In this document: piece by piece, positions 2,624 to 43,456 of the stretch
Layout: every line of letters starts with the position of its first letter
Numbering within the stretch: the first letter of the stretch is position 1
From: Veterinaerplatzvirus T145P1
Direction: 5' to 3' (one strand)
Sequence record: OZ035767.1
DNA length: 44,816 nucleotides
Made by a program: the position numbers and the translations under genes
Notes under the pieces: generated by a model
Seen by the model: only the letters and a program-made list of their open reading frames with translations
What the model was told of the DNA's origin: nothing
Databases searched by the model: none

Positions 2624-3874
2624 ATGGTAAAGACAGACAGCTACGCCAATATCTTTCTCGGCGGCAGTGATGGTAGTGAGATTTACGGGAGCTTACAGAA
2701 TCAGGAGCCTACAATCCTGGCTTCTCTTTATGCGAATAATGCGCTGGTACGTAGAATTATCGACACAATCCCTGAGACAGCATTAGCGGCAGGATTCCAC
2801 ATTGATGGTATTGATGATGAGCCAGCATTTTGGTCGCGATGGGATGACCTGGAAATGACGCAGAATATTAACGACGCCTGGGCGTGGGCGAGATTATTCG
2901 GTGGCGCCGCTATTGTGGCTATCGTTAAGGACAATAGGGCACTAACAAGTGCGGTCAGAGAAGGTGCTGAGCTTGAAACAGTTCGCGTTTACGACCGCAC
3001 GCAAGTAAAAGTACAAACTCGCGAGGAGAATCCCCGTAACGCACGTTTTGGTAAGCCACTAACCTATCGCATCACCACAAATGAGAGCGATATGTTCTAT
3101 GATGTGCACTACAGCCGAATTCACATCATTGACGGAGAGCGAATTCCTAACGTAATGCGTCGGCAAAATGATGGCTGGGGCCGTAGCGTTCTATCCAGTG
3201 ACATTCTTGACTCAATTAAGGATTACACCAACTGTGAACGACTTGCTACGCAGTTACTGAAGCGCAAGCAGCAGGCGGTGTGGAAGGCAAAAGGTCTGGC
3301 TGAGTTATGTGATGATAGCGAAGGATTTGGTGCAGCTCGATTGAGACTTGCACAGGTTGACAACAATAGCGGCGTAGGCCAGGCGATTGGTATCGATGCG
3401 GAATCTGAAGAATACAGCATTCTCAACTCCGATATTGGCGGGATCGATGCGTTCCTGGATAAGAAGTTCGATAGAATCGTTGCCCTGAGCGGTATCCATG
3501 AAATCATCCTGAAAAACAAGAACGTTGGTGGTGTGTCATCAAGCCAGAATACAGCCCTTGAGACATTCCATAAGCTAGTTGACCGCAAACGTAACTCTGA
3601 GTTGCTTCCTATTCTTGGGTTCTTAATCCCGTTCATCGTAAATGTAGAAGAGTGGTCAGTTGAGTTTTATCCTTTAGCTCAGGAATCAAGCAAGGATAAG
3701 GCTGAGATTCTGGAGAAGAACGTAAACAGCATTGCATCACTAATTGCATCTGGCGCTATGAATGCTAACGAGGCGCGTGATACACTACGAGCCATCGCAC
3801 CAGAGATTAAGATTGGTGATGGTGATATTGAAGCTCAACAACAAGAAAAATCAGAGGAGGTTGTGATTGCTTAA
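2624..3874 (+). CDS. putative portal protein
   Basis: 416 aa, positioned between terminase and head genes. Confidence 0.65.
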   Translation: MVKTDSYANIFLGGSDGSEIYGSLQNQEPTILASLYANNALVRRIIDTIPETALAAGFHIDGIDDEPAFWSRWDDLEMTQNINDAWAWARLFGGAAIVAIVKDNRALTSAVREGAELETVRVYDRTQVKVQTREENPRNARFGKPLTYRITTNESDMFYDVHYSRIHIIDGERIPNVMRRQNDGWGRSVLSSDILDSIKDYTNCERLATQLLKRKQQAVWKAKGLAELCDDSEGFGAARLRLAQVDNNSGVGQAIGIDAESEEYSILNSDIGGIDAFLDKKFDRIVALSGIHEIILKNKNVGGVSSSQNTALETFHKLVDRKRNSELLPILGFLIPFIVNVEEWSVEFYPLAQESSKDKAEILEKNVNSIASLIASGAMNANEARDTLRAIAPEIKIGDGDIEAQQQEKSEEVVIA

Positions 3875-5673: not shown

Positions 5674-6618
5674 ATGGCCATTAAATTTGATGCAGAACAA
5701 GCAAAAATCACCGCTCACCTCGAGCAAATGGGCGTAGAGAAAGCAGATGCCGCTGGTATCTGGACTGTTAAGCAACTGACCGCCAATCTGGCACGAGCTT
5801 ACGAAAAAGAATATGCAGACAACTCCGTTGTTAATATCTTCCCTGTGACCAATGAAATCCCTGGTCATGCGAAATATTTCGAATATCCAGAATTTGACGG
5901 CGTTGGCATTGCTCAGATTATCGCCGATTACTCTGACGACTTGCCGCTGGTTGATGCGTTTATGACCGAGAAACAGGGTAAAGTGTTCCGCTTTGGTAAC
6001 GCGTTCCTGATCTCCACTGACGAAATCAAAGCAGGTGCGGCAACTGGTCAGCCACTGTCGGCTCGCAAACAGGCTCTGGCATTCGAAGCGCATGATAACC
6101 TGCTGGATAAACTGGTATGGTCAGGCTCTACACCACACGGAATTCCTAGCGTGTTCAATCATCCGAACATCAACAACGTTGTTTCTGGTGGTGCGTGGAG
6201 CTCTGCAGCTGCCGCCATGACTGATATTACCGCACTTATTGATGCAATCGAGACTGCGACTAATGGCACTCACACCGCAACTGATATCTTGCTGCCTGCC
6301 TCCGCTCGCCGCCTGATGCAAGAACTGGTGCCGAATACATCTATCAGCTACGCCCAGCTGTTCGCTACCAATAACTCTGGTATCACTCTGCGTTATCTTC
6401 AGTTCCTGGATAACTACGACGGAGCAGGCGGTAAAGCAGCATTGGCGTTTGAAAAGAATCCTCTCAACCTTTCGATTGAGATCCCGGAAGCGACCAATGT
6501 ACTTCCAGGACAGCCTAAGGATTTGCACATCCGCTACCCTGTTACCTCCAAAGCAACAGGATTGATTTTATATCGCCCTCTGACGGTGGCCGTAATGAAA
6601 GGTATCACCTTCGCGTGA
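5674..6618 (+). CDS. major capsid protein
   Basis: 314 aa; preceded by sigma70-like promoter and followed by strong terminator; position after scaffold. Confidence 0.7.
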   Translation: MAIKFDAEQAKITAHLEQMGVEKADAAGIWTVKQLTANLARAYEKEYADNSVVNIFPVTNEIPGHAKYFEYPEFDGVGIAQIIADYSDDLPLVDAFMTEKQGKVFRFGNAFLISTDEIKAGAATGQPLSARKQALAFEAHDNLLDKLVWSGSTPHGIPSVFNHPNINNVVSGGAWSSAAAAMTDITALIDAIETATNGTHTATDILLPASARRLMQELVPNTSISYAQLFATNNSGITLRYLQFLDNYDGAGGKAALAFEKNPLNLSIEIPEATNVLPGQPKDLHIRYPVTSKATGLILYRPLTVAVMKGITFA

Positions 6619-6622
6619 TAAA

Positions 6623-6646
6623 TCGCCCTCTTCGGAGGGCTTTTTT
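6623..6646 (+). terminator. rho-independent terminator after major capsid gene
   Basis: GCCCTC-TTCG-GAGGGC hairpin then T6. Confidence 0.75.
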
Positions 6647-6709
6647 ACGTCTGTACCAAATGGATTTGTTGGGTTATAATCACTCAATCAGATAACAAAG
6701 GAGACAAAA

Positions 6710-6955
6710 ATGATTCGTTTAGAACACACTGGCGCTTGCCTTATCGTTTACAGGGGTGAGAAATATTTGCCTGGTGACACTTTCGAGGTTGATGCAATTT
6801 GCGACGGACTCAAGCGTTTAATCGCAGAGGGTAAACTCACCATTGAGGGTGACGCCAAAGCAACCAAACAAATCGCGCAAGAAGTTGTTAGCAAGAAAAA
6901 GCGCAGAGAACCGAAAACCATCTCCGAGGCTGAGACTGGTAACGAGTACAAATAA
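6710..6955 (+). CDS. hypothetical head-associated protein
   Basis: 81-aa ORF with RBS AAGGAG between two terminator-like hairpins. Confidence 0.45.
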   Translation: MIRLEHTGACLIVYRGEKYLPGDTFEVDAICDGLKRLIAEGKLTIEGDAKATKQIAQEVVSKKKRREPKTISEAETGNEYK

Positions 6956-8602: not shown

Positions 8603-9259
8603 ATGGCTCATCTCAGCAATGGCACGCAGGTCTTCGTAGAAGGCTCTCGCGGAGCTGCAATTGACGTAACTGCAATTTCTAACGCAGTTACCCCTGTTTT
8701 AACTGTATCTGACGCCTCTGGCTTGGTCGTTGGTGATTACTTGCTTTTCACCTCTTCTGCCTCAACTCTTCTGGCTGACAAGCAGGTTCGCGTAACTGCA
8801 ATCACTGATACGTCAGTAACCGTTGAAGGTATTGATACCTCCAGCACCACTAAGTTCCCTGCTGGTCTAACTGGTGAAGTTGTTAAAATTACTTCATGGT
8901 TCGAGGTTCCTTGTGTTCAGGACGTATCTACTGACGGCGGCGAACAGCAGTTCGTTAACTTCCAGTGCTTGTCAGATGACCGCGAACAGCAGATTCCGAC
9001 TTATAAATCTGCCGTAACAAACACCTTCACCTTTGCTCACGAGTACACTAACCCGGTTTATCCGGTTCTGCGTAACTACGACGAGTCTGGCCAGGTTGTT
9101 GCGATTCGTCTGTTCGTACCTCGCGCTCAGGAAATGCGTTTACAGTCCGGCACTATCGCTTTCAACGACACCCCTACCATTGGTGTTAACGAAATCGAAA
9201 CGGTATCCATCGCAGTATCCATTCGTGGGCGCCTATCCTCTGTGGCAGCAGAAGTTTAA
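8603..9259 (+). CDS. major tail protein
   Basis: 218 aa, followed by terminator, located upstream of G/GT chaperones and tape measure. Confidence 0.7.
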   Translation: MAHLSNGTQVFVEGSRGAAIDVTAISNAVTPVLTVSDASGLVVGDYLLFTSSASTLLADKQVRVTAITDTSVTVEGIDTSSTTKFPAGLTGEVVKITSWFEVPCVQDVSTDGGEQQFVNFQCLSDDREQQIPTYKSAVTNTFTFAHEYTNPVYPVLRNYDESGQVVAIRLFVPRAQEMRLQSGTIAFNDTPTIGVNEIETVSIAVSIRGRLSSVAAEV

Positions 9260-9265
9260 AGCACA

Positions 9266-9288
9266 AACCCTCTTCGGAGGGTTTTTTA
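9266..9288 (+). terminator. rho-independent terminator after major tail protein gene
   Basis: ACCCTC-TTCG-GAGGGT hairpin then T6. Confidence 0.75.
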
Positions 9289-9292
9289 TTGC

Positions 9293-9338
9293 ATAGCACT
9301 TTTTGCTAAAGCGGTTATTCAACTTTGCTGTATAGTTA
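9293..9338 (+). promoter_or_regulatory. conserved palindrome-promoter element, copy 2
   Basis: ATAGCACTTTTTGCTAAA - 22 nt - TATAGTTACC then CATCGAAACGAAA leader. Confidence 0.6.
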
Positions 9339-9369
9339 CCTCATCGAAACGAAATGAGAGATTAAAGAA

Positions 9370-9618
9370 ATGAATAACGTTAAAAACATCATCAAGCTCG
9401 CTGCGGTTCTGTTTGCTTTTTATGCGGTAGTTCAGATTGTAGACCCAACAGGTGAGGCTGATGCCAATAGCAAGGCAAACAAATATACTGTTGAATTTGC
9501 TAAGGCTGAGCGAGCATGTCAGGAGCTTGTAGGTGGCAAAGTTGACCAAATCATGAAATACGGCAAAGAGGTTTGTAAGGACTCGGCTGCTAAGATTGCA
9601 AAAGAAAACACTAAGTAA
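9370..9618 (+). CDS. small secreted/membrane protein (moron-like, own promoter)
   Basis: 82 aa with hydrophobic N-terminal signal-like segment; preceded by promoter-like element 9293-9338. Confidence 0.5.
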   Translation: MNNVKNIIKLAAVLFAFYAVVQIVDPTGEADANSKANKYTVEFAKAERACQELVGGKVDQIMKYGKEVCKDSAAKIAKENTK

Positions 9619-9656
9619 TAGAATACATACTCACAAACAATAAGAGGATTAACAAA

Positions 9657-9971
9657 ATGGCAAAGTTCAAACTTTCACTGGCAGCACTCCCAGACTTTAA
9701 GCTACCAGTAAAATTTAAGCTGGCTAACGACCAGGATGTAGAGGTTATCTTTACAGTCAAGCATAAGAAAACATCTGAGTTGCAGGAGCTGCTTAGCAAG
9801 GAAGACTTGAGCACAAAAGAGCTTATTATGGCAATTGCTTCTGATTGGGATCTGGAAGAAGAATACAACGAAGATAACGTTAATGAGTTCTCAGACCTTT
9901 TCCCGGCCTCAACTGTTGCACTGACAACTGCTTACATGCAAGCGCTTGCTGGTCAGCGAGTAAAAAACTAA
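9657..9971 (+). CDS. tail assembly chaperone (lambda G-like)
   Basis: 104 aa directly upstream of tape measure; ends in slippery heptamer A AAA AAC. Confidence 0.7.
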   Translation: MAKFKLSLAALPDFKLPVKFKLANDQDVEVIFTVKHKKTSELQELLSKEDLSTKELIMAIASDWDLEEEYNEDNVNEFSDLFPASTVALTTAYMQALAGQRVKN

Positions 9972-10291
9972 AACGAGCGGTGTATCTACAGTACCAGTCA
10001 GAGCCAACTGATGCCGAACTGGAAGCTATTGGGATGCGCCGCTCTGATTACGAAGATGAAGAGCCTGAGGTTTTACACTTCGACGACAACATGATGAAGG
10101 CGTGGGACATTTATTGTTCAATGGCTACGCAGTGGAGAGTAGGAGCCAATGGAGCTACAGGGTTAGATTACAACGTGCTAAATTTCCTCTTTAGAGTGTA
10201 TAATGTTTCTGAAGAAGAATTGGTACTCAGCGATTTACGCATCCTTGAAGCTAAGGCTCTTGAGATGATGGATAACCTGAGAAAAAAATAA
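9657..10291 (+). CDS. tail assembly chaperone frameshift fusion (lambda GT-like; -1 frameshift at 9962-9968)
   Basis: Downstream ORF (track 9980-10291) is in the -1 frame relative to G and has no convincing own start; slippery site A_AAA_AAC overlaps the G stop. Confidence 0.6.
9962..9968 (+). other. -1 programmed ribosomal frameshift slippery heptamer (A AAA AAC)
   Basis: X XXY YYZ heptamer at the last sense codons of the G-like chaperone; -1 frame continues open for 103 codons. Confidence 0.6.
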
Positions 10292-10312
10292 CCCGCTTCG
10301 GCGGGTTTTCTA
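10291..10312 (+). terminator. rho-independent terminator (partial, before tape measure)
   Basis: CCCGC-TTCG-GCGGG hairpin then TTTTC. Confidence 0.55.
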
Positions 10313-10326
10313 TTATGGAGGCTTAG

Positions 10327-13308
10327 ATGGCAACAAATGAATTAGCCGGAATCACACTAGCCGTAGATGTCTCGCAAGTAGACAGGGGAACGCAATCCCT
10401 GCAAAAGTTCAGACAGGCAAACCAGCAAGCCGCTTCCGGTATTAGTGAATTCGTCAACGCTGAGCAGGTTGCTAAAAACCAGGCGAGAGATACGGCTCGT
10501 GCACTTTCTGAGCAGCAAGCGTCACTAGCTAAATTGCAAACAGCTATCGACCCAACTGCTGCAAAGTTCCGCAAGCTGCAAGAGGCAGCGGTGGGTCTTG
10601 ATAAAGCATTCGCTGCTGGCGTAGTTCCTGACGAGGAATTTTTCCGCTTAGGTGAGGCGCTAGAAACTCAAAACGCAAAACTTGCTCGTTCACGTGCGGC
10701 GCTAACTGAAGAGGGTAGGGCGGCAGCGCAGGCTGCAAAGGATAAGGCAAAAGCAAAGGCTGAAGCGGATAGATTCATTGCATCACTTGAGCGTCAGGCT
10801 CAAGCGGCAACATTGACGCGTGAGGAGTACTTAAAGTTACAAGCGGCCCAGCTTGGCGTTAGTTCTCAGGCAGCACCCATCATTGACAGAATCGCCGACG
10901 CATCACAGAAGGCAAACACCCAGTTAATTGCTCAGAGTAAGGCTTTTCAGAAATCAGGATTAAGCGCCGGGCAATACAAGAATGCCATATCTCAACTACC
11001 AGCGCAGATTACTGATATTGGCACGTCGCTTGCTGGTGGCATTCCGATTTGGCTTATTGCAATTCAGCAAGGTGGGCAGATCAAGGATGCATTTGGCGGC
11101 ATTGGTAACACCTTTAGATTCGCACTTGCAGCCTTAAACCCATTCAATGTAGCTGTTGGTGTTTTGGGTGGGGTACTTGTAGCTCTTGGTGTTGGTGCGG
11201 CTCAGGCTGAAAGTGAATTCAGAGCATTAAACTCTGCCATTGCATTTTCCAACAACTCTACAATCGCATCAATCTCGCAGGTTAGAGAGTTGGTTAGCTC
11301 TGTTTCTGATGCAACAGGTGCCACCAGAGGGCTTGTGACTAGCATCGCAACAAGCCTTATTGAGCAAGGGAACCTTACGCTGACGCAGATTGACAAGATT
11401 ACTAAATCGACCGCAAGATGGGCGCAGTTGACAGGCAAGGATGCGAAGGAAATTACTGGTTACTATAACCAGATTGCGAGCGACCCAATACAGGGATTGG
11501 TTGATTTGGATAAGCGCTTTAACTTCCTCACTCAGGGGCAGTTGACGACAATCGAAAACCTGAGAAAGACAAAGGGAGAGGTCGAGGCCGTTACCGCCGC
11601 AATTGACATTTTCAGCAAGTCGCAGGAAGCAAACCTTAACGACATAGCAGCGCAGTTAACTCCACTTGAGTTAGCCTGGAATGACTTTAGAAAGTACATC
11701 TCTGACATTTGGGATGCAATTAGCCGCAGAACGGTTGGGGCGCTAAACCTGTTTGTTGACGTAATTGCCGGAACAATTGAGCAGATCAGGGTCTTCATTA
11801 ACCAGGGTGACGTACTGATTGGTGAATTCGTAATTAGCGCAACGCAAGCGCTGCAAAACATTCCTGGTCTTGATGGTGTTGGTGATGATGTCATAAAGAG
11901 CCAGCAGAAGATTATCGATGCAGCCAAGAAGCAAAACCTTGAGCTAGAAAAGTCTATCAAGGAGCGCGATGCCAGAATAAGAGAAGGAGAACTTGGTTAC
12001 GTTACTCGCAGAGAAAATCAGAATACCAATGAGCAGTCAGGCACGGATGAGGAGTTTGCAAAAAGGAAGAAGGCGCTTCAGGATGAACTTGATGCGATCA
12101 AGAAGAACAGGAAAGAAGAAAATGGCAGGGTTAAAGAGCAAAGAGACCTTACAATTGGTTACGAATCTGGCGTACTGGCACTTCAGGCTCAACTCAAGGT
12201 TCTTCAGGAAAATAGGGATATTGGCGCAGTAATAAGTAATGAGCGCAAGCAGTATCTTCAGGATGAAGCCAAATTCAGGATTCTTGAGCAGAGGCAGCTT
12301 GATGGTTCAATCACCAAAGAGCAGTCAAGACTTCTTCTTGAGAAGGATAAAGTCCTCGAATTGGCAAGGCAGAAGGCTGAACTTGGAGATCAGATTGTTT
12401 TGCAGGAGCGAGCCAATAAGTTAGCTGAAGATAACCGCAAGAAGATTCTTCAGATTAACAACGAAGCAAAAAACATTGATTTGGGGGCTGGTCTATCTTC
12501 TCGTGAACAACAGAGAGCCAAAGAGATTCAGGCTCTTCAGTCCAATCAGGTTAATGCTGGTGGCGCAATTGATGACGTGGATTTTCAGCAGCTTCTCGAG
12601 GCAAGACGTAACTTTTATGCTCAGGAAGATGCGCTACGTGAAAACTGGCTTGCTGGTGTGAACCAATCCTTTGCTAATTGGGCTGAGAGCGCGAAGGATG
12701 CATTCTCAATTGCTGGAAGTTTAACCACCACAGTATTTGAAGGCATTACTGACCAGATTACTGACCTTGTAACAACTGGTGAAACTAACTTCAGAGAGTT
12801 CACTGTTAACATCCTTAAACAGATTGCTAAGATTGCGGCTCAGCTTCTTATTGTTAAGGCTATCGAGTCTAGTTTAAGTAGCTTTGGTGGTACTGGTGGC
12901 GCGATTGGCTCTATCGCATCTGCGATTGGTGGTGGATTCGCTAACGGTGGTTATACTGGTAATGGAGGGAAATACCAACCAGCAGGAACCGTACACCGTG
13001 GTGAGTTTGTATTCACAAAAGAAGCAACTAGTCGAATCGGTGTTAAGAACCTTTACGCTCTAATGAAAGGTTACGCAAACGGTGGTGTCGTTGGTGGTCC
13101 CTCTGGCTATGCAAATGGTGGCTTGGTTTCTGGAGGCACAGATGTTAATGTTAGTGGAATTACGGTTAACGTTAATAGTGGAATTGGAAGTGACCCAGAG
13201 CAGGCCAAGGCGCTGCAAAATGGCGTTAAGGCAATTGTAGCTGAAGAGATTTCTCAGTCTTTCCAGCAGGGTGGCAGAGCTTATCAGTACCTGCGCGGAT
13301 TTAACTAA
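10327..13308 (+). CDS. tail tape measure protein
   Basis: 993 aa, long alpha-helical/coiled-coil regions, Gly-rich C-terminus, canonical position. Confidence 0.9.
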   Translation: MATNELAGITLAVDVSQVDRGTQSLQKFRQANQQAASGISEFVNAEQVAKNQARDTARALSEQQASLAKLQTAIDPTAAKFRKLQEAAVGLDKAFAAGVVPDEEFFRLGEALETQNAKLARSRAALTEEGRAAAQAAKDKAKAKAEADRFIASLERQAQAATLTREEYLKLQAAQLGVSSQAAPIIDRIADASQKANTQLIAQSKAFQKSGLSAGQYKNAISQLPAQITDIGTSLAGGIPIWLIAIQQGGQIKDAFGGIGNTFRFALAALNPFNVAVGVLGGVLVALGVGAAQAESEFRALNSAIAFSNNSTIASISQVRELVSSVSDATGATRGLVTSIATSLIEQGNLTLTQIDKITKSTARWAQLTGKDAKEITGYYNQIASDPIQGLVDLDKRFNFLTQGQLTTIENLRKTKGEVEAVTAAIDIFSKSQEANLNDIAAQLTPLELAWNDFRKYISDIWDAISRRTVGALNLFVDVIAGTIEQIRVFINQGDVLIGEFVISATQALQNIPGLDGVGDDVIKSQQKIIDAAKKQNLELEKSIKERDARIREGELGYVTRRENQNTNEQSGTDEEFAKRKKALQDELDAIKKNRKEENGRVKEQRDLTIGYESGVLALQAQLKVLQENRDIGAVISNERKQYLQDEAKFRILEQRQLDGSITKEQSRLLLEKDKVLELARQKAELGDQIVLQERANKLAEDNRKKILQINNEAKNIDLGAGLSSREQQRAKEIQALQSNQVNAGGAIDDVDFQQLLEARRNFYAQEDALRENWLAGVNQSFANWAESAKDAFSIAGSLTTTVFEGITDQITDLVTTGETNFREFTVNILKQIAKIAAQLLIVKAIESSLSSFGGTGGAIGSIASAIGGGFANGGYTGNGGKYQPAGTVHRGEFVFTKEATSRIGVKNLYALMKGYANGGVVGGPSGYANGGLVSGGTDVNVSGITVNVNSGIGSDPEQAKALQNGVKAIVAEEISQSFQQGGRAYQYLRGFN

Positions 13309-13338: not shown

Positions 13339-13689
13339 ATGGCAATAGATAATTTTACATGGTGTACACAAATCCAGAATGGTGGAGCTGCATTTTCCAA
13401 TACAAACAATGTTCGTATTGTTAGCTTTGGCAATGGTTTTGAGCAAAGAGGAACAGGGGGCTACCGCAGTAATAAGCGCAGCTACCAGATGACCTATACA
13501 AACAAGGACTGGCGTGAGGTTATGGATTTCTGCTTCAATCACATCATCACACCATTCTTCTGGAAAACACCGCAAGGTGATACTTCTATGTTTGTTATTC
13601 AGCAGGATAGCATTTCAGTTACACCAATTAGTAGCGAAGTTCAGACTGTAAACATGCAATTCGTAGAAGTTTTTAGCTCAATGCGTTAA
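13339..13689 (+). CDS. minor tail protein (lambda M-like)
   Basis: 116 aa immediately after tape measure. Confidence 0.65.
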   Translation: MAIDNFTWCTQIQNGGAAFSNTNNVRIVSFGNGFEQRGTGGYRSNKRSYQMTYTNKDWREVMDFCFNHIITPFFWKTPQGDTSMFVIQQDSISVTPISSEVQTVNMQFVEVFSSMR

Positions 13690-15884: not shown

Positions 15885-18800
15885 ATGGCTGAAGATATTA
15901 AGATTTATGGTGCTAAGGGTGGTAGCCAGAAGCAGCACCAACCAGTGGAACAAGAAGACAACCTGATTTCATTAAACAAGGTCAAGGTATTACTTGCGGT
16001 TGCTGACGGCGAGGTTGACCCTAACTTCTCAATGAAAGATTTATACCTTGCTGACGTTCCGGTGCAAAACCAGGATGGTAGCTACAACTATGATGGTGTT
16101 CGCGCTGAGTTCCGTGCTGGCACGCAGTATCAGGACTATATCGCCGGGCTTGACGGTGCTAACTCAGAGATTCAGGCATCCAGAGAAATCAAGAACGATA
16201 CCCCGTACATCATTGCGGTTAACAATACTCAGCTTTCAGCAATTCGAGTTAAGCTATTTTGGCCTCGACTGGTTAAGCAAGAAAACAACGGAGACCTGAA
16301 CGGAACAACTTGCGAGTACGCAATTGACCTTTCTGTTAATGGTGGTGCTTACCAGGAATACACTCGCGGAGTTGCTAACGGCAAGACAACTACAGGTTAC
16401 GACCGAAGCATTCGCGTAAACCTTCCGGCAGAGTTTGATAGTGCGCTTGTTCGCATCCGTAAGATTACAGCTGACTCAACGAGCAGCACACTGGTTAACG
16501 GAATGCAGATTACAACCTATCAGGAAGTAATCGACGCCAAATTCCGCTACCCGCTTACGGCTCTGGTCTATGTTGAGTTTGGTTCTGACTTGTTCCCTAA
16601 CGGCATCCCGACAATCTCAATAAAGAAGCGTTGGAAGCTAATTCAGGTACCGACAAACTACGACCCGGAGACAAGGACTTACAGCGGGACATGGAATGGC
16701 TTATTCAAGATGGCATGGTCGAATAACCCGGCATGGGTTCTCTATGACCTGGTGACAAACCGACGCTATGGGCTTGACCAGCGAGAGTTGGGTGTAGAGA
16801 TTGATAAATGGGGCTTGTATGAAGCCGCGCAATTCTGTGACCAGATGGTTCCAGATGGTAAGGGTGGTTTAGAGCCGCGTTACCTTTGCGATATGGTTGT
16901 GCAAAACAAGGTTGAGGCCTACACGCTAATTCGTGATATCTGCTCAATCTTCCGTGGTCTGACTTTCTATGACGGCGAAAAGATTGGCATCGTGGTTGAT
17001 AAGCCTCGCAACCCATCTTACATATTCACCAACGATAACGTTGTAAATGGATTGTTCAGCCGAACCTTTGCCAGTGATAAAAGCCTTTACACCACCGCAA
17101 ACGTTCAGTTTGATGATGTAGAAAACAACTACCAGCAGGATGTTGAGCCGGTATTTGAACTGGAAGCTACTCGCCGATTCGGATTCAATCCTGTCGACCT
17201 CACGGCAATTGGATGCACGAGAAGAAGTGAAGCAAACAGACGCGGCAGATGGCTCCTAAAAACCAACCTGAGAAGCGAAACCATAAGCTTCACTACCGGG
17301 CTGGAAGGCATGATTCCGATGATTGGTGAGGTGATTGCGGTCAATGACGCGGCATGGTCAAGCAACTATCAGTTAAACCTTTCTGGTCGCATTGAATCAG
17401 TTCAGGGATTGCAAGTTTTCACCCCGTTTAAAGTTGACGCAGCGCCGGGTGACAGAATTCTTCTGAACAAGCCTGACGGAAGTCCAGAAGCAAGAACTAT
17501 TGCCAGCGTTTCGGAAGATGGTAGGACAATCAACCTTAACACTGCTTTTAGCTTTGTTGCTCAGCCAGACACGGTATTTGCAATCGACAAGGATAACCTT
17601 GCTCTTCAGCAGTACGTTGTGACCGGGATTCAAAAGGCAGATACTGACGGCTCGGATTCATTCCAGTATACGATTACCGCTGTAGAGTATGACCCGAACA
17701 AGTATGACGAGATTGACTACGGCGTTAACATCGTTGACCGCCCAACTTCAATTGTTGAGCCTGACAGATTGTCGCCACCAGAAAACCTGACCGTGTCAAG
17801 TTATAGTAAGGTTGTTCAGGGCTTGTCGGTTGAGACGATGGTTATCGGATGGGATAAAGCGCCATACGCCAAAACATACAATGTTCAGTGGAGGAAAGAA
17901 AATGGTAACTGGATTAACGTACCAAGAACAGCAAGTACAGAGGTTGATATCGAAGGTATTTACGCGGGAATCTATGATGTTAGGGTTCGCAGCGTATCAG
18001 ATACTGAAAACGTGTCTGCATGGTCTGACATTGTAACGGTATCGCTAACTGGCAAGATTGGTCGTCCATCGGCACCTACGGTTATAACGGCATCAACTGA
18101 TGAAGTATTTGGTATCCGTGTTAAGTGGGGTTTCCCTGATGGCTCTGGCGATACTGCTTATACTGAACTTCAGCAGGTTGCTGATAATGGTGATGGTACA
18201 TACAATCCTGATAACGCAAGTTTGCTTACGTTACTTCCGTACCCAGCCTATGAATACTGGCACACGCCAATTCAGCCAGGCAAGGTTATCTGGTATCGCG
18301 CAAGATTGATTGACAGAATCGGAAATACGTCTGATTGGTCTAATTTCGCAAGAGGCATGAGTACTGACGACGCCAACATTATCAATGATTACATCAAGGT
18401 TGATATTGAGGGTTCTGAAGGATTCAAATACCTCGAGCAGAATGCGATTCAAAAGAATCAGGACATTCAGAATCAGGCAGAGTCAATTCTTGAGAACGCA
18501 TTGGCTAATGATGGTGATGTTCGTCGCATGACCAAGGAGAACGGCAAACGTAAGGCTGAATATGTTCAGGCGGTGAATCTCATAGCCGATGAAACTCAGG
18601 CACGCGTAGAGGCTCTTACGCAGCTTAAAGCGCAGATTGATGATGAGGTTGTTGGTCAGATTGCAACAATTGAAACAGCGCTAGCCACAGAGACAGAGGC
18701 AAGAGCGACAGCCGACACGGCTTTGAGCGCAAGGGTTGGTAATAACGAGGCGGCTCTAAACCAGAAGCTGGATGCTTTCTCTAATGCCACGTCAACTGGT

Positions 18801-19276: not shown

Positions 19277-19305
19277 AAAGCCCCTTAATTGGGGCTTTTC
19301 TTTTA
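19277..19305. terminator. bidirectional terminator between convergent J and minus-strand tail genes
   Basis: AAAGCCCC-TTAATT-GGGGCTTT flanked by A/T runs on both sides. Confidence 0.7.
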
Positions 19306-20274
19306 GTAGAAGTTTGGGATAAATGGAAGTGCCATTGATATGTTCGTGTCGAAAGGAAACTGAGCGCCTGTCTGAGTTGAGTAGTTACCTATTACAGATC
19401 CAGGAACAGCCCTAACGGAGCCTCCAGACATGCAAACACCCTTGTATCGTAAGTTGTTATACCCTCCGGTAACTCTAGTCGTAGCGCCGCACCTAAGCAG
19501 CGGGAAGAAACCACCATTTATTGACTGATATCCATTGCTTATTTGTATAAATCCACCAAGAACGAATGGGCGGCGAACACTTGAAAAAACAATCTGACCA
19601 GAACTATTTGACATTGTGAGTCCAGGCCCGGCCGGTGGTGGTTCATTCCTGAATATCACCAGCTGAACATGGGTACTTGCCGCAACATCATCTGTACCTC
19701 CGTAGGTTATATCCCTACACCATATTGTTGATCCATCTGATTCAAGTGATACGTTTGGATTATCCCACTTGCCGAATGGTATTCCGCTAACTGGTAGCGA
19801 TGCTGCACCGTTAACCTGTATGCCCCCAACCCAGGCCGCAGACATTAGCCGCGAGTTGCTTGATATAGCAAGGAAATCAGTTGAGTTCTCAACAAGTATT
19901 CCAGGACTTGATGAGGATGAAGCCGGTAGTATCTCAAAGCAATTACCAGCAAAGTCAATTATTCGACCATTAGCACCATTGAAGTTGCTGAGAGTTATCC
20001 TGCCAGTTCCGTCATTTACCTTTTGAAACCCGTTCATGTAATAAACTTCGGGTATAACATCGTAAGCGTCAACGTGGACTGCCTTCGTTGGTAGGCAGAA
20101 AGCCGTAGAGCCAGGAGACATTGTCAATCCAAAATCCCACGAGATTGCCGGGGTTGAAAGTCCATTGGTATTTATTGATCCAGTCACAGCAGGTGCCCTT
20201 AATCCTGCCGTGATTTCCATCGCTGGTCTTCCGTCATTGAGGTCAATCAATATACCCTGCGGCATTATTTCCAC
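19303..20274 (-). CDS. tail-associated protein, candidate receptor-binding protein
   Basis: 323 aa Gly/Ser/Asn-rich, convergent to J, co-transcribed with a small lipoprotein; function inferred from context. Confidence 0.45.
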
Positions 20275-20510
20275 TCCTTACTGCCGTGATCTGCAACAGA
20301 ACCGCCGTAACCGCCGCCAGATTTGCTTTCAATGCCAGCGTAGCGAATATCAACCTCACCAGCCGGAACAACTACACCGCCTTTCCACTTAGCTACGCAC
20401 ACGCCGTTTGCTTGTGTTGCACACCACCCATCAGGTCGAGGACCAGAAGAACAACCTACTGTCATGATTACTGCCGCCGAGATGATTGCTGATTTGATGA
20501 AGTTAGTCAT
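20265..20510 (-). CDS. small outer-membrane lipoprotein, Cor/Llp-like superinfection exclusion candidate
   Basis: Start moved to ATG 20510 (RBS AAGGAA); signal peptide with lipobox-like TVGC; about 81 aa. Confidence 0.5.
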
Positions 20511-20546
20511 TTTGTATTCCTTATTAAGTTGTTTCGTTTCGATGTA

Positions 20547-20594
20547 GTAATAATACAACCGTCAGTGCGGAATGTCTTTAGCTATTCGTGCTAT
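20547..20594 (-). promoter_or_regulatory. conserved palindrome-promoter element, copy 3 (minus strand)
   Basis: Reverse complement reads ATAGCACGAATAGCTAAA ... TATTATTAC ... CATCGAAACGAAAC upstream of the lipoprotein gene. Confidence 0.5.
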
Positions 20595-24101: not shown

Positions 24102-26435
24102 TTAACCTATTTTAGTGTAAGTCCATTGGTATGTTGCAGCTCCCTGGGCAGTTATCCCGACAGTTCTTCCACTTACATCCATTGAAGTGAAAGCGCCAGT
24201 TTTTGTAATTGTTATTGATGATGTGGAACCATCAAAAAGTACGTCAGCAATTACACTATAGTTAGGTCCAGCACCAGTAACCCAGGTCGAAACCTTGTAT
24301 AAACCAGCGTTGTTTGGCAACTCAAAAAGACCAGTTGAAACATTCGCCTGAACAGCCATCGCGCCCTTTCCGGTGTACACACCGTCAGTTTTAAGACCTA
24401 ATGATGAATATGTTTGCTTATAGCCACCAATGATGGCACCACCCATAGGTTCAGTAAACCAGTTCACATTACCCTGACTAACAACAGATATCGCTGGAGA
24501 CCCCCCTTTAGCTGACTGAAACCTACCGCTTAAAATGTCAATTCTAGATGCTGAGTCCTGGGCGTAGATAGTTACAGGATACCCACCAGAACCAGTGTAA
24601 ACCAAGCCGTTATCATTAATGTCATCTTCAGACGAGTCAATGATTACATGGGAAGTTCCAGACGCCTTGATGAACGAAACAACACCGCTAGAACCAGCAC
24701 CTGTTGTTCTAACTTCATTCTTCCATGATGTTAGGCCTGAAATTCTGCCATTTGAGTTATTAAACCTAATCAGGCAACAATCTTGCGATCCGTTGGTGTC
24801 AATAATGTTACCTTCAACGTCCATCCCTAGTATGTTTACGCTATGGCTGTTGATGAAGTTAATCCCAGCACCACCGTAAGAACCAGATGTTGATGATATA
24901 TTACTGGCATCCATTGCGCAGTTAATCATTGTAACGCTCATTACCGAACCAAATTCATAAGGTGAAATGCAATCTGATGCGTAACAAGTCTCAAGCAATA
25001 TTGTCGTTCCTGTCGCCTTTATGAATCCAGCCCTGCAATTCCTGGCCCAAACATTCTGTAGCTTAGTCTGGTATGTTCCAGTGGTGTCCGTGTAGCAACC
25101 CCATGCTCCATGGACTGTGCAATCTTTGATACATGAATTTTCTAGCCCTGTTGCAGAACCAACATTAGAAACGAAGTTAAATGCTATCTTTTGATCATTC
25201 CCTGATGCTGAGGTAGGTGTAGTGCCTGGGTTATAAAAAATGTAAAGTCCCTCAATAAACACTTGATACATTCTTATGTTTTGCGCATCACCCTGAACCA
25301 GGGCGAATAGGTTTATGTTCCCATCAACTGAGATAAATGTTTGCGCCCTGTTAATTTGGTTTGTTCCCTCGCCAATAATTCTTGTACTGTTGCCAATCCT
25401 CACCGTCCTGTTAATGAACATAAAACCTTTTGGTATGTATACAGTTTTACCGGTATCAACTGCCGCCTGAAGCGCAACTGCGTCAAGCGACTCGTTAAGG
25501 TTTGATGCAAATGGATAAACAAACCGTGCATCCTCAATTGACGAGAATTTAGATGATAGCGGAACTAAAGTACCATTGTTTGTGGCGCCGAAATCCATAA
25601 CGTTAACAAAATCACTAAGTTTTGATTCCACGCTTCTAACCACTGATGATACATTATTCAGCTTGAAGTTTATCATTGATGAGCCATTATCATTCTCAAG
25701 ATTTTTGAGGACCCTTCCGTTTGAAAGAAGCCTCCAGCCAGTCTCATCATCTATACCCCCCGTTCCTTCTGGGGTTGATCCTTGCGGTACAACCTTAGGG
25801 AATGCTCCAGACCACACATAAACAGAAGAGTTCTCAATGTCTATGATTTGCTGAGAATCACCCTGAAGAGTAACGCCACCTTGAAAGCTACCAACTAAAG
25901 CTCCTGAAACTGATGCTGCCGCACTCTGAGCAGTGCTTGCAGAGTTGCTTGCAGACAATGCGGAACTAGAAGCAGAATCCTTGTCACTCGCAACCTGGGC
26001 GGCATCATTTGAAACCTGCGCACCAATTGAAATTACTTCACCATACTGCGTGTTAACCTGCGAAACCTTTGTGCTAAAGTCATTTGCATCAAAGTTTTTG
26101 AAAGCATCAACAGCATCTGAAACCTCAGTTTCACGTGACTGATAGTAACGGAGAGTCTCCGCAACATCCTGAGCCAGCCCCTGAACGGTAATTCCATCAT
26201 GCGCAAGGATAGCGTAACCAGTTCCAGCAGGAACAGTTTCGGAGTTAGGGTTGTAAACATTAATCTGCGTATCGCTGATAATTTCTGAGATGGTGTAAAT
26301 CTGTACTGGTTCAGTTTTAAATACAATGGTTGCACCTACACGAATCAGTGTAAGAGGTGCTTTCCATGTTGTCCCGACGCCAGTCACCTCACCACTTGCT
26401 GCTAGAGAAGCTGTTCCTGAGTCATAAATTGCCAT
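24102..26435 (-). CDS. tail fibre / tailspike with beta-helix-like C-terminal domain
   Basis: Start moved to ATG 26435 (MAIYD...); N-terminal fibre-anchor-like region, Ser/Ala-rich repeats, C-terminal Gly/Asn/Thr/Cys-rich region typical of parallel beta-helix. Confidence 0.7.
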   Translation of the reverse strand: MAIYDSGTASLAASGEVTGVGTTWKAPLTLIRVGATIVFKTEPVQIYTISEIISDTQINVYNPNSETVPAGTGYAILAHDGITVQGLAQDVAETLRYYQSRETEVSDAVDAFKNFDANDFSTKVSQVNTQYGEVISIGAQVSNDAAQVASDKDSASSSALSASNSASTAQSAAASVSGALVGSFQGGVTLQGDSQQIIDIENSSVYVWSGAFPKVVPQGSTPEGTGGIDDETGWRLLSNGRVLKNLENDNGSSMINFKLNNVSSVVRSVESKLSDFVNVMDFGATNNGTLVPLSSKFSSIEDARFVYPFASNLNESLDAVALQAAVDTGKTVYIPKGFMFINRTVRIGNSTRIIGEGTNQINRAQTFISVDGNINLFALVQGDAQNIRMYQVFIEGLYIFYNPGTTPTSASGNDQKIAFNFVSNVGSATGLENSCIKDCTVHGAWGCYTDTTGTYQTKLQNVWARNCRAGFIKATGTTILLETCYASDCISPYEFGSVMSVTMINCAMDASNISSTSGSYGGAGINFINSHSVNILGMDVEGNIIDTNGSQDCCLIRFNNSNGRISGLTSWKNEVRTTGAGSSGVVSFIKASGTSHVIIDSSEDDINDNGLVYTGSGGYPVTIYAQDSASRIDILSGRFQSAKGGSPAISVVSQGNVNWFTEPMGGAIIGGYKQTYSSLGLKTDGVYTGKGAMAVQANVSTGLFELPNNAGLYKVSTWVTGAGPNYSVIADVLFDGSTSSITITKTGAFTSMDVSGRTVGITAQGAATYQWTYTKIG

Positions 26436-26458
26436 TGTGTAGAGTCTCCATTTGTAAA

Positions 26459-26476
26459 ATAGCACGAATTGCTAAA
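26459..26476. promoter_or_regulatory. orphan copy of the palindrome (no canonical downstream -10 box)
   Basis: ATAGCACGAATTGCTAAA, 24 nt upstream of the minus-strand tail fibre start codon. Confidence 0.4.
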
Positions 26477-26499
26477 GTGGATTGTAGCATCTTTGAGTC

Positions 26500-26524
26500 A
26501 TAAAAAAACCTCCCGAAGGAGGTT
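26500..26524 (-). terminator. rho-independent terminator of primase transcript (minus strand)
   Basis: AACCTCC-CGAA-GGAGGTT hairpin followed by T-run on the minus strand. Confidence 0.7.
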
Positions 26525-27504: not shown

Positions 27505-27984
27505 TCAAATCGTGCTGTTTTGCTCTTTCTTCTTTTGGTTCTCTAATTTTATCTTGCGCCATGAACGACACTCTGGCTTAGTGGCTAATTCAGCCTCAGT
27601 GACGACTCGCAGCATATGGCGCTTTTTGCACCGAAGTGTCAGCGGTTTCCCGTTGCCGTCGAATTGCAGGTCTGGTCGGCAGAATGTAGCGCGAAAACCT
27701 TCTCCATTTCGCTTATAGTAGTTGTGAGAAAGTTGAGCCCCACGCGCAGAAATCATACCGCGCTTAAACCATTCTTCTACAGCCTGTGGTGTTACCTTTA
27801 ACTGCTTTGCGATATTCGCCTTTGTGCCGAAGAAATCAAGAACTATCTCTAGCCGCGCGCGTAGCCCGGCTCTTACTTCATCTTTTAAAACATAGTAGCC
27901 TGAAGGTCGTTTACGTTGCTTTTTGTCTTCGGTGCGGATGGTTCCGTTATTGCCGTTAATTGTTCGCTTGTCGACTGTATTCAT
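27505..27984 (-). CDS. HTH DNA-binding protein, putative transcriptional regulator
   Basis: 159 aa, basic; HTH-like segment TKANIAKQLKVTPQAVEEWF; divergent from helicase promoter element. Confidence 0.5.
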   Translation of the reverse strand: MNTVDKRTINGNNGTIRTEDKKQRKRPSGYYVLKDEVRAGLRARLEIVLDFFGTKANIAKQLKVTPQAVEEWFKRGMISARGAQLSHNYYKRNGEGFRATFCRPDLQFDGNGKPLTLRCKKRHMLRVVTEAELATKPECRSWRKIKLENQKKKEQNSTI

Positions 27985-42075: not shown

Positions 42076-42122
42076 ATAGCACGAATTGCTAAACCCGCTC
42101 CTGCGGGTTTTGTTATAGTTAG
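42076..42122 (+). promoter_or_regulatory. conserved palindrome-promoter element
   Basis: ATAGCACGAATTGCTAAA - 22 nt containing hairpin CCCGC..GCGGG - TATAGTTA. Confidence 0.6.
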
Positions 42123-42147
42123 TTCACACCAATCGAGAGGTAAGAAA

Positions 42148-43326: not shown

Positions 43327-43456
43327 ATATGTTATCGCATGTGAACGACTGGTCTTTGATATGAAGACTTTTCACTGGTTCATAATTAAGGATTTAGTTA
43401 AGCCTTATAAGAAAGGTGTTATGCCAGAGCAGTTTGTTAAGTCGTTCTACAAATAG
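43313..43456 (+). CDS. hypothetical small protein
   Basis: 47-aa ORF; stop TAG embedded in palindromic element. Confidence 0.3.
   Translation: MSFTEYVIACERLVFDMKTFHWFIIKDLVKPYKKGVMPEQFVKSFYK

Follow-up and report, generated by a model that had tools for sequence, protein, structure and literature searches.

ORF82, a predicted Sec-exported accessory protein in an apparently exchangeable slot between the tube and tail chaperone genes of Braunvirinae coliphages

Laboratories and fermentation plants know T1-like phages as notorious contaminants, and some of these phages are considered for phage therapy. To our knowledge, hardly any of their small accessory genes have been annotated. The nearest described systems are the superinfection-exclusion lipoproteins Cor, Llp and Rtp45 of T1- and T5-like phages, and Spackle and Imm of phage T4, which are small proteins of a virulent phage that reside in the periplasm or inner membrane and halt superinfecting phages once these have adsorbed. 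Spackle is helical and periplasmic and carries a signal peptide. In the tail operon of phage HK97, the moron gp15 excludes superinfecting phages from the inner membrane and acts at the envelope as a non-virion protein (PMC3594210).

The window analysed here is a stretch of 44,816 nucleotides from Veterinaerplatzvirus T145P1 (OZ035767.1). Over the 1,728 bases compared (8603-10330), identity is 99.9% with Veterinaerplatzvirus T145P1 and 89-95% with many Braunvirinae (Drexlerviridae) coliphages, and on sequence the window is assigned to a T1-like coliphage of this subfamily, whose phages are called virulent or lytic in the literature. The locus is composed as follows.

8603-9259 (+): major tail (tube) protein gene (PF08813, E=4.5e-68; phrog_584)
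9265-9290 (+): tube gene intrinsic terminator with an 8-bp, GC-rich stem (9265-9284), a TTCG loop and a T6 run
9293-9338 (+): element that is very probably a promoter; dyad TAGCA-N5-TGCTA at 9294-9308, -10-like TATAGT at 9331-9336
9341-9369 (+): leader TCATCGAAACGAAATGAGAG with SD-like GAGAG at 9357-9361
9370-9618 (+): ORF82, ATG start, 82 aa
9370-9465 (+): predicted signal peptide, residues 1-32; n-region MNNVKNIIK, h-region LAAVLFAFYAVVQIV, c-region DPTGEADA
9466-9618 (+): predicted mature domain and stop codon; 50 aa, 5.5 kDa, predicted helical, with C50 and C69
9596-9624 (+): candidate secondary promoter TTGCAA-17-TAGAAT, 9/12 consensus match, overlapping the 3' end of ORF82
9657-9971 (+): tail assembly chaperone G (PF08748, E=6.1e-33), probably co-transcribed with ORF82
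9980-10291 (+): chaperone T part (DUF1799; PF08809, E=4.9e-16), reached by frameshift from G
10290-10307 (+): first terminator downstream of ORF82, probable end of the transcription unit
10327-13308: tape measure protein gene, downstream of the chaperone T part

The next tail gene of the window starts at 13339. HNH/homing-endonuclease genes are found among the tail genes after the tape measure gene in JeanPiccard, ACG-M12 and phiA2-1; the window has none there. In EC3a and Rtp, a terminator after the capsid gene is followed by an 81-aa ORF (rtp28-like, similar to T1 gp46; DUF7444). The corresponding stretch of the window is 6619-6900, after the major capsid gene at 5674-6618. If a gene of this type is present there, its conservation out to T1 would make it, unlike ORF82, no clade-specific insertion.

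ORF82 is a real gene. Its pairwise dN/dS among five phages is 0.05-0.36, and its translation is identical to the one quoted in an earlier note made from the DNA letters. The Lys-rich body described there is borne out by composition, with Lys at 12 of 82 residues (14.6%). The gene is annotated everywhere as a hypothetical protein, and a signal peptide was noted once in passing (PMC8421802).

ORF82 belongs to a known class, the small envelope-directed accessory genes in siphophage tail operons, and nothing about it is categorically new. Like HK97 gp15, to which a probable envelope-acting, non-virion role likens it, it is a small gene with a hydrophobic N-terminus on extra DNA by the chaperone genes. 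The slot of gp15 is the one between the chaperone and tape measure genes, that of ORF82 the one between the tube gene and the chaperones. In the temperate phage HK97, gp15 has a promoter and terminator of its own and is a prophage-expressed gene, whereas the phage carrying ORF82 is virulent and ORF82 has no terminator. ORF82 shows no sequence similarity to gp15/YebO, matches neither YebO nor any other Pfam family, and, unlike gp15, has a probable cleavage site. T4 Spackle and Imm have no detectable homology to ORF82 and a different genomic context. A profile of the ORF82 family gave no match at E<=10 against all PDB chain sequences, which should include Spackle, a protein of solved structure. 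Cor, Llp and Rtp45 share with ORF82 the phage family and the direction to the envelope; they are lipoproteins, whereas no member of the ORF82 family has a lipobox (L-x-x-C) or any Cys in residues 1-49. ORF82 also has no link to the receptor-binding locus, nor does its allele follow receptor type. A link to the terminal receptor was rejected on the pair JeanPiccard and AugustePiccard, both of which use LptD yet differ in cargo.

The terminator that the earlier note placed behind the major tail gene is strong and lies at 9265-9290. It is invariant in six Braunvirinae, and five other Drexlerviridae have analogous terminators behind the tube gene. For the promoter element that the note put next to it, a generic sigma-70 scan found no promoter at 9293-9338, because TTGCTA (9303-9308) sits 22 bp, not 17, before TATAGT. 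The element is nevertheless real, non-random and very probably a promoter. The motif TAGCANNNNTTGYTAAA has 14 copies in the window (0.23 expected), a number attained by none of 100 shuffles. Copies lie at 2117, 9294, 20593(-), 22882, 26460, 27998, 30494, 31535, 37791(-), 38972(-), 40540, 42077, 42587 and 43454. When aligned, they read aAATAGCAC-N3-TTGCTAAA, followed by about 21-22 unconserved bases and then TATAGTTA, and nearly every copy has a -10-like hexamer at this fixed distance. Apart from the copy at 43454, 13 copies were examined for a start codon preceded by an SD sequence tens of bases downstream on the same strand; 11 have one, the exceptions being 26460 and 38972(-). Phage Rtp carries 13 copies, one upstream of rtp34 and one before the rtp45 lipoprotein gene. 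The motif is a genuine promoter-like family. Leader starts of the type CATCGAAACGAAA often recur at its other copies.

From the position of the -10-like hexamer we infer a transcript start near 9343 (about 7 nt downstream), which would put the dyad centre near -42. This is the geometry of class II activator-dependent promoters and suggests phage promoters that depend on an activator. The phage's HTH protein (27505-27984, -) and host factors would be candidates for binding the dyad. Two other readings of the motif were rejected. A canonical sigma-70 promoter with TTGCTA as -35 is ruled out by the 22-bp spacer at essentially every copy. A sigma-54 promoter (TGGCAC-N5-TTGCW) would require the invariant GG, where the motif has AG, and a 5-nt spacer, where it has 3 nt, and is also contradicted by the well-placed -10-like hexamer that follows. 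In the leader, a CTCAT/ATGAG hairpin did not score above shuffled sequence (z -0.89). The searched literature yielded no transcriptome, no map of start sites and no virion mass spectrometry for Braunvirinae.

Some copies of the motif have features of their own. The one at 26460-26522 lacks a -10-like hexamer, overlaps the listed start of a 787-aa ORF (24102-26465, -) and has a terminator-like hairpin behind it. Two copies, 42077-42125 and 37791-37745(-), carry GC-rich terminator-like hairpins within the spacer that separates dyad and -10, forming compact terminator-within-promoter modules. The Cor/Llp-type lipoprotein gene of the window (20265-20510, -) has the same promoter motif as ORF82 and the same leader CATCGAAACGAAAC. 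It lies upstream of an Rtp44-like gene (19303-20274, -), a locus described as a bona fide RBP locus by Maffei et al. The stretch 19303-20593 (-) is assigned as a Cor/Llp-type exclusion locus, in which lipoprotein and RBP form a pair under one motif.

The earlier note had called the promoter of ORF82 private, and here it did not hold. Between ORF82 and the chaperone gene (9619-9656), no terminator-like site was found. Relatives have a terminator and a restart element directly before the chaperone gene, and in Rtp-type phages the chaperone gene begins 18 nt past the cargo gene. Taken together, the missing terminator, the restart element of the relatives and the 18-nt spacing indicate that the promoter is most likely shared with the chaperones and would serve ORF82 and G/G-T up to the terminator at 10290-10307. 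The candidate secondary promoter at 9596-9624 may, on weak grounds, be a second start for the chaperones. Its -35 and TAnAAT persist in divergent ORF82 alleles but are absent in Rtp; in phage EC3a, an annotated promoter occupies the homologous site.

For the term moron, the definition of Juhala et al. 2000 and Cumby et al. 2012 was used. The description of the locus as a moron-like unit stands as far as extra DNA is concerned, the gap between tube and chaperone genes being 397 bp. It does not stand for the terminator, of which ORF82 has none of its own, or for base composition, which is not deviant (GC 0.418 in ORF82; chaperone gene, 0.425; whole window, mean 0.444 with sd 0.041). A promoter-like motif does lie directly upstream of ORF82, at the position at which relatives restart transcription for the chaperones, and is probably shared with G/G-T. 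Expression from a prophage is not applicable, since Braunvirinae phages are virulent or lytic in the literature. ORF82 is not a self-contained moron.

For the distribution of the gene, records of related phages were compared. The ORF82 family was found in 81 phage records, all Braunvirinae-like, and the neighbouring chaperone in 872. In Sd1, phiJLA23, DanielBernoulli, Shfl1 and BMac, representing Rogunavirinae, Tempevirinae, Tunavirinae and Webervirus, the gap between tube and chaperone genes is 42-113 bp and contains no ORF. These four other Drexlerviridae groups bear out the insertion between tail genes proposed in the earlier note, and the comparison of related genomes that it had called for found the family limited to one subfamily and not universally conserved at this position. 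The empty gaps consist of a terminator followed at once by a -10-like element, e.g. TGTTATAAT or TGTAGAAT, and in at least two of the five phages (those with TGTTATAAT and TGTAGAAT) the hexamer is preceded by TG. Since terminator and restart element also occur in the other subfamilies, a restart promoter behind the tube terminator looks ancestral, and the Braunvirinae gene appears to sit between this promoter and the chaperone gene.

Within Braunvirinae, six phages including Rtp have kept the block upstream, made up of terminator, motif, leader and ATGAA. In Rtp (16304-16766), AugustePiccard, MM01 and RobRod40, this block precedes Rtp34, a 128-aa protein MKAIIAIMATLLLAGC of the outer-membrane lipoprotein type with a lipobox (LLAGC). 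Rtp34 thus shares slot, start codon and predicted export with ORF82 and differs in being an unrelated lipobox protein; kinship of the two was rejected (hhalign probability 0.2%). Replacement is also apparent among ORF82-type phages. Between ACG-M12 and the window, the tube protein is 97% and the chaperone 96% identical, ORF82 only 52%, which delimits a gene-sized island of divergence. Synonymous divergence in ORF82-type phages is likewise much higher in ORF82, which indicates allele replacement and not just fast evolution. Exact leader scans of viral and metagenome contigs gave cargo of the ORF82 or Rtp34 type only, with no third type, and no empty slot was found among the Braunvirinae records listed. 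Given the latter, some envelope cargo may be needed in nature. On these comparisons, the gap is read as a cargo slot in which promoter, leader and start codon are kept and the coding sequence is exchanged.

The hydrophobic, signal-like N-terminus pointed out in the earlier note was examined in 41 unique homologues. The n-region carries two lysines (K5 and K9), and the h-region LAAVLFAFYAVVQIV comprises 15 residues with a mean Kyte-Doolittle value of 2.46. It is followed by Pro-x-Gly and then by a small-x-small motif, which in the window is A-D-A at -3 to -1. Position -1 is Ala in 40/41 homologues and -3 is A, T, S or V in 38/41; position -2 is mostly Asp and unconstrained, and the Asn at +1 is invariant in aligned family members. 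ORF82 thus has the positively charged n-region, the h-region of 7-15 residues and the small uncharged residues at -3 and -1 of a Sec signal peptide, and the pattern is the signature expected of cleavage by signal peptidase I. SignalP 4.1 and TMHMM were both positive for MSK_000011, which lies beside the tube gene MSK_000010 in phage MSK (PMC8421802). MSK_000011 was equated with the ORF82 homologue by gene order, and ORF82 copies of the MSK lineage are 96% identical to that of the window.

The TMHMM result would also fit an uncleaved signal anchor, by which ORF82 would be a bitopic inner-membrane protein (N-in, C-out) like HK97 gp15, T4 Imm and P22 SieA. Together with I7-I8 the hydrophobic stretch reaches 18 residues, and conservation of the first 24 residues is higher than usual for a signal peptide. 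The core itself has just 15 residues including a Gln, however, a helix-breaking Pro-x-Gly comes next, and an anchor would leave the conserved small-x-small motif behind it unexplained; SignalP moreover gives a secretory signal for the MSK homologue. The anchor is therefore considered doubtful, and a cleaved signal peptide is preferred.

For the mature protein, cleavage after residue 32 is assumed. It would carry 10 K and 1 R vs 7 D/E (pI 9.2). AF2 gave low confidence for full-length ORF82 (pLDDT 62) and a single long helix for the mature part alone (pLDDT 86). C50 and C69 are invariant across the aligned family, which fits an oxidising compartment. In the single-helix model the two cysteines are unable to pair within one chain, so that on this model an intermolecular disulfide in an ORF82 dimer is no more than conceivable.

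Homology searches placed ORF82 in one significant family, PHROG 22925, an orphan seen only in Braunvirinae. No significant match was found in Pfam (no family at E<=1), NCBIfam, PADLOC or PDB sequences. A profile search of 1.84 billion representative proteins returned the cluster of ORF82 itself and one marginal match (E=3.8e-4), which covers 29 residues of an unrelated 869-aa protein. For a partner on the phage side, the allele class of ORF82 was compared in nine phages with three parts of the tape measure, with M, L, K and I, with two parts of J, and with the lipoprotein and the receptor-binding protein, and no co-variation was found. This independence from the phage's own tail and receptor genes indicates no phage-side partner, and a host component or a foreign phage appears a more likely target than the own tail.

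The proposed course of events is as follows. The strong terminator after the tube gene would halt most transcripts, and transcription would resume at the adjoining phage-family promoter, which has its dyad at about -42 and TATAGT. ORF82 would then open a short unit that also takes in the chaperone genes and ends at the terminator at 10290. Its product would be exported by the Sec pathway, and residues 1-32 would probably be cut off at A-D-A|N, freeing a basic, alpha-helical domain of 50 residues into the periplasm, where the two invariant cysteines would probably stabilise or dimerise it. If uncut, the protein would remain attached to the inner membrane, again with this domain on the outside. 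ORF82 would most probably act on the envelope of the infected cell, and the favoured role is to block DNA entry of a superinfecting phage, by analogy with HK97 gp15, T4 Spackle and Imm, and the lactic-acid-bacteria proteins Ltp and Sie. Taken as a whole, the reading of ORF82 as a Braunvirinae-specific, Sec-exported accessory protein in an exchangeable slot that acts at the envelope, with superinfection exclusion as favoured role, is held to be fairly probable; the envelope-acting exclusion role by itself, drawn from analogy, is tentative.

The predicted periplasmic location would equally suit a host envelope target that serves some purpose other than exclusion, such as inhibition of a periplasmic protease, a cell-wall enzyme or a membrane-acting defence system, or keeping progeny from becoming trapped on debris. 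The independence of the allele class leaves host and foreign phage alike as targets, and divergent alleles are swapped as whole genes. ORF82 resembles no known inhibitor or anti-defence family, however, and nothing separates this explanation from exclusion; it is regarded as unlikely. A role as a periplasmic regulator of lysis timing like T4 RI, sensing or modulating holin, SAR endolysin or spanin, is improbable. ORF82 broadly resembles RI in its size, its export signal, its cysteine content and a helical periplasmic domain, and the lysis module of phage T1 is described as pinholin-based, but ORF82 lies about 24 kb from the endolysin- and spanin-sized ORFs at about 34.0-34.9 kb (assigned by analogy with the Rtp lysis cassette), matches no annotated lysis PHROG, and is substituted in Rtp by a lipoprotein and not by another antiholin-like protein. 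Exclusion at the envelope is kept as the favoured role.

For the dispensability of ORF82, natural nonsense alleles in phage contigs were considered. E47* occurs in a 42.7-kb contig in which the remaining frame is intact (locus coordinates 1501-1752). E67* results from a single GAG-to-TAG change in the 46.7-kb contig VSMK01000220.1 (GCA_011682075.1; locus coordinates 3001-3285). The two alleles are independent and lie in otherwise intact phage genomes; two further ORF82 clusters stop at E79 (E79*). As nonsense alleles are tolerated in intact phage contigs, ORF82 is dispensable, and in combination with the export signal they argue strongly against a structural or assembly role. A tail protein would be conserved wherever the homologous tail module occurs, and ORF82 is not. 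The earlier suggestion of an accessory function rather than tail structure is thus upheld by a family confined to one subfamily, by the swap for the Rtp lipoprotein and by the nonsense alleles, and it is highly probable that ORF82 is exported, non-structural accessory cargo.

A tail-assembly or minor virion protein is the least credible explanation: ORF82 sits in the tail operon, is probably co-transcribed with the chaperones and fills its slot (or is replaced there) in every Braunvirinae record listed, but it is absent from four Drexlerviridae groups with homologous tube and chaperone genes (tape measure genes as annotated), gives way to an unrelated lipoprotein in Rtp, carries an export signal that would take it out of the cytoplasm where tails are assembled, and is cut short by E47* and E67* in intact genomes. 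In the MSK study, virion bands were assigned by size only (PMC8421802), and no mass-spectrometry virion proteome for an ORF82-carrying phage was found in the literature.

The contig VSMK01000220.1 is itself conspicuous by its origin. It is a T1-like coliphage contig of full genome size, with head-tail gene order, in an assembly labelled Nitratidesulfovibrio liaohensis, and genomes nearly identical to it are listed under Pseudomonas phage PsgS01F and Campylobacter phage A110b. All three are probably contaminants or have mislabelled hosts.

For T1-like phages, ORF82 is a cheap and specific target with which to test whether virulent siphophages carry receptor-independent exclusion factors. The by-products of the analysis, the exchangeable slot and the dyad-type promoter family, neither of which was found described in the searched literature, are more interesting than ORF82 itself. 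It is a speculative and rather doubtful extension that the gap between tube and chaperone genes in Braunvirinae would be a dedicated, exchangeable slot for envelope weapons, with a conserved promoter and leader and a putative dyad-binding factor expressing ORF82 or Rtp34 as cargo; that ORF82 would found a receptor-independent family of periplasmic proteins that exclude phages or block their entry; and that the promoters with a dyad at -42 would represent a previously undescribed transcription programme of T1-like phages. The 14-copy promoter motif offers a handle on how transcription is organised in phages without a polymerase of their own.
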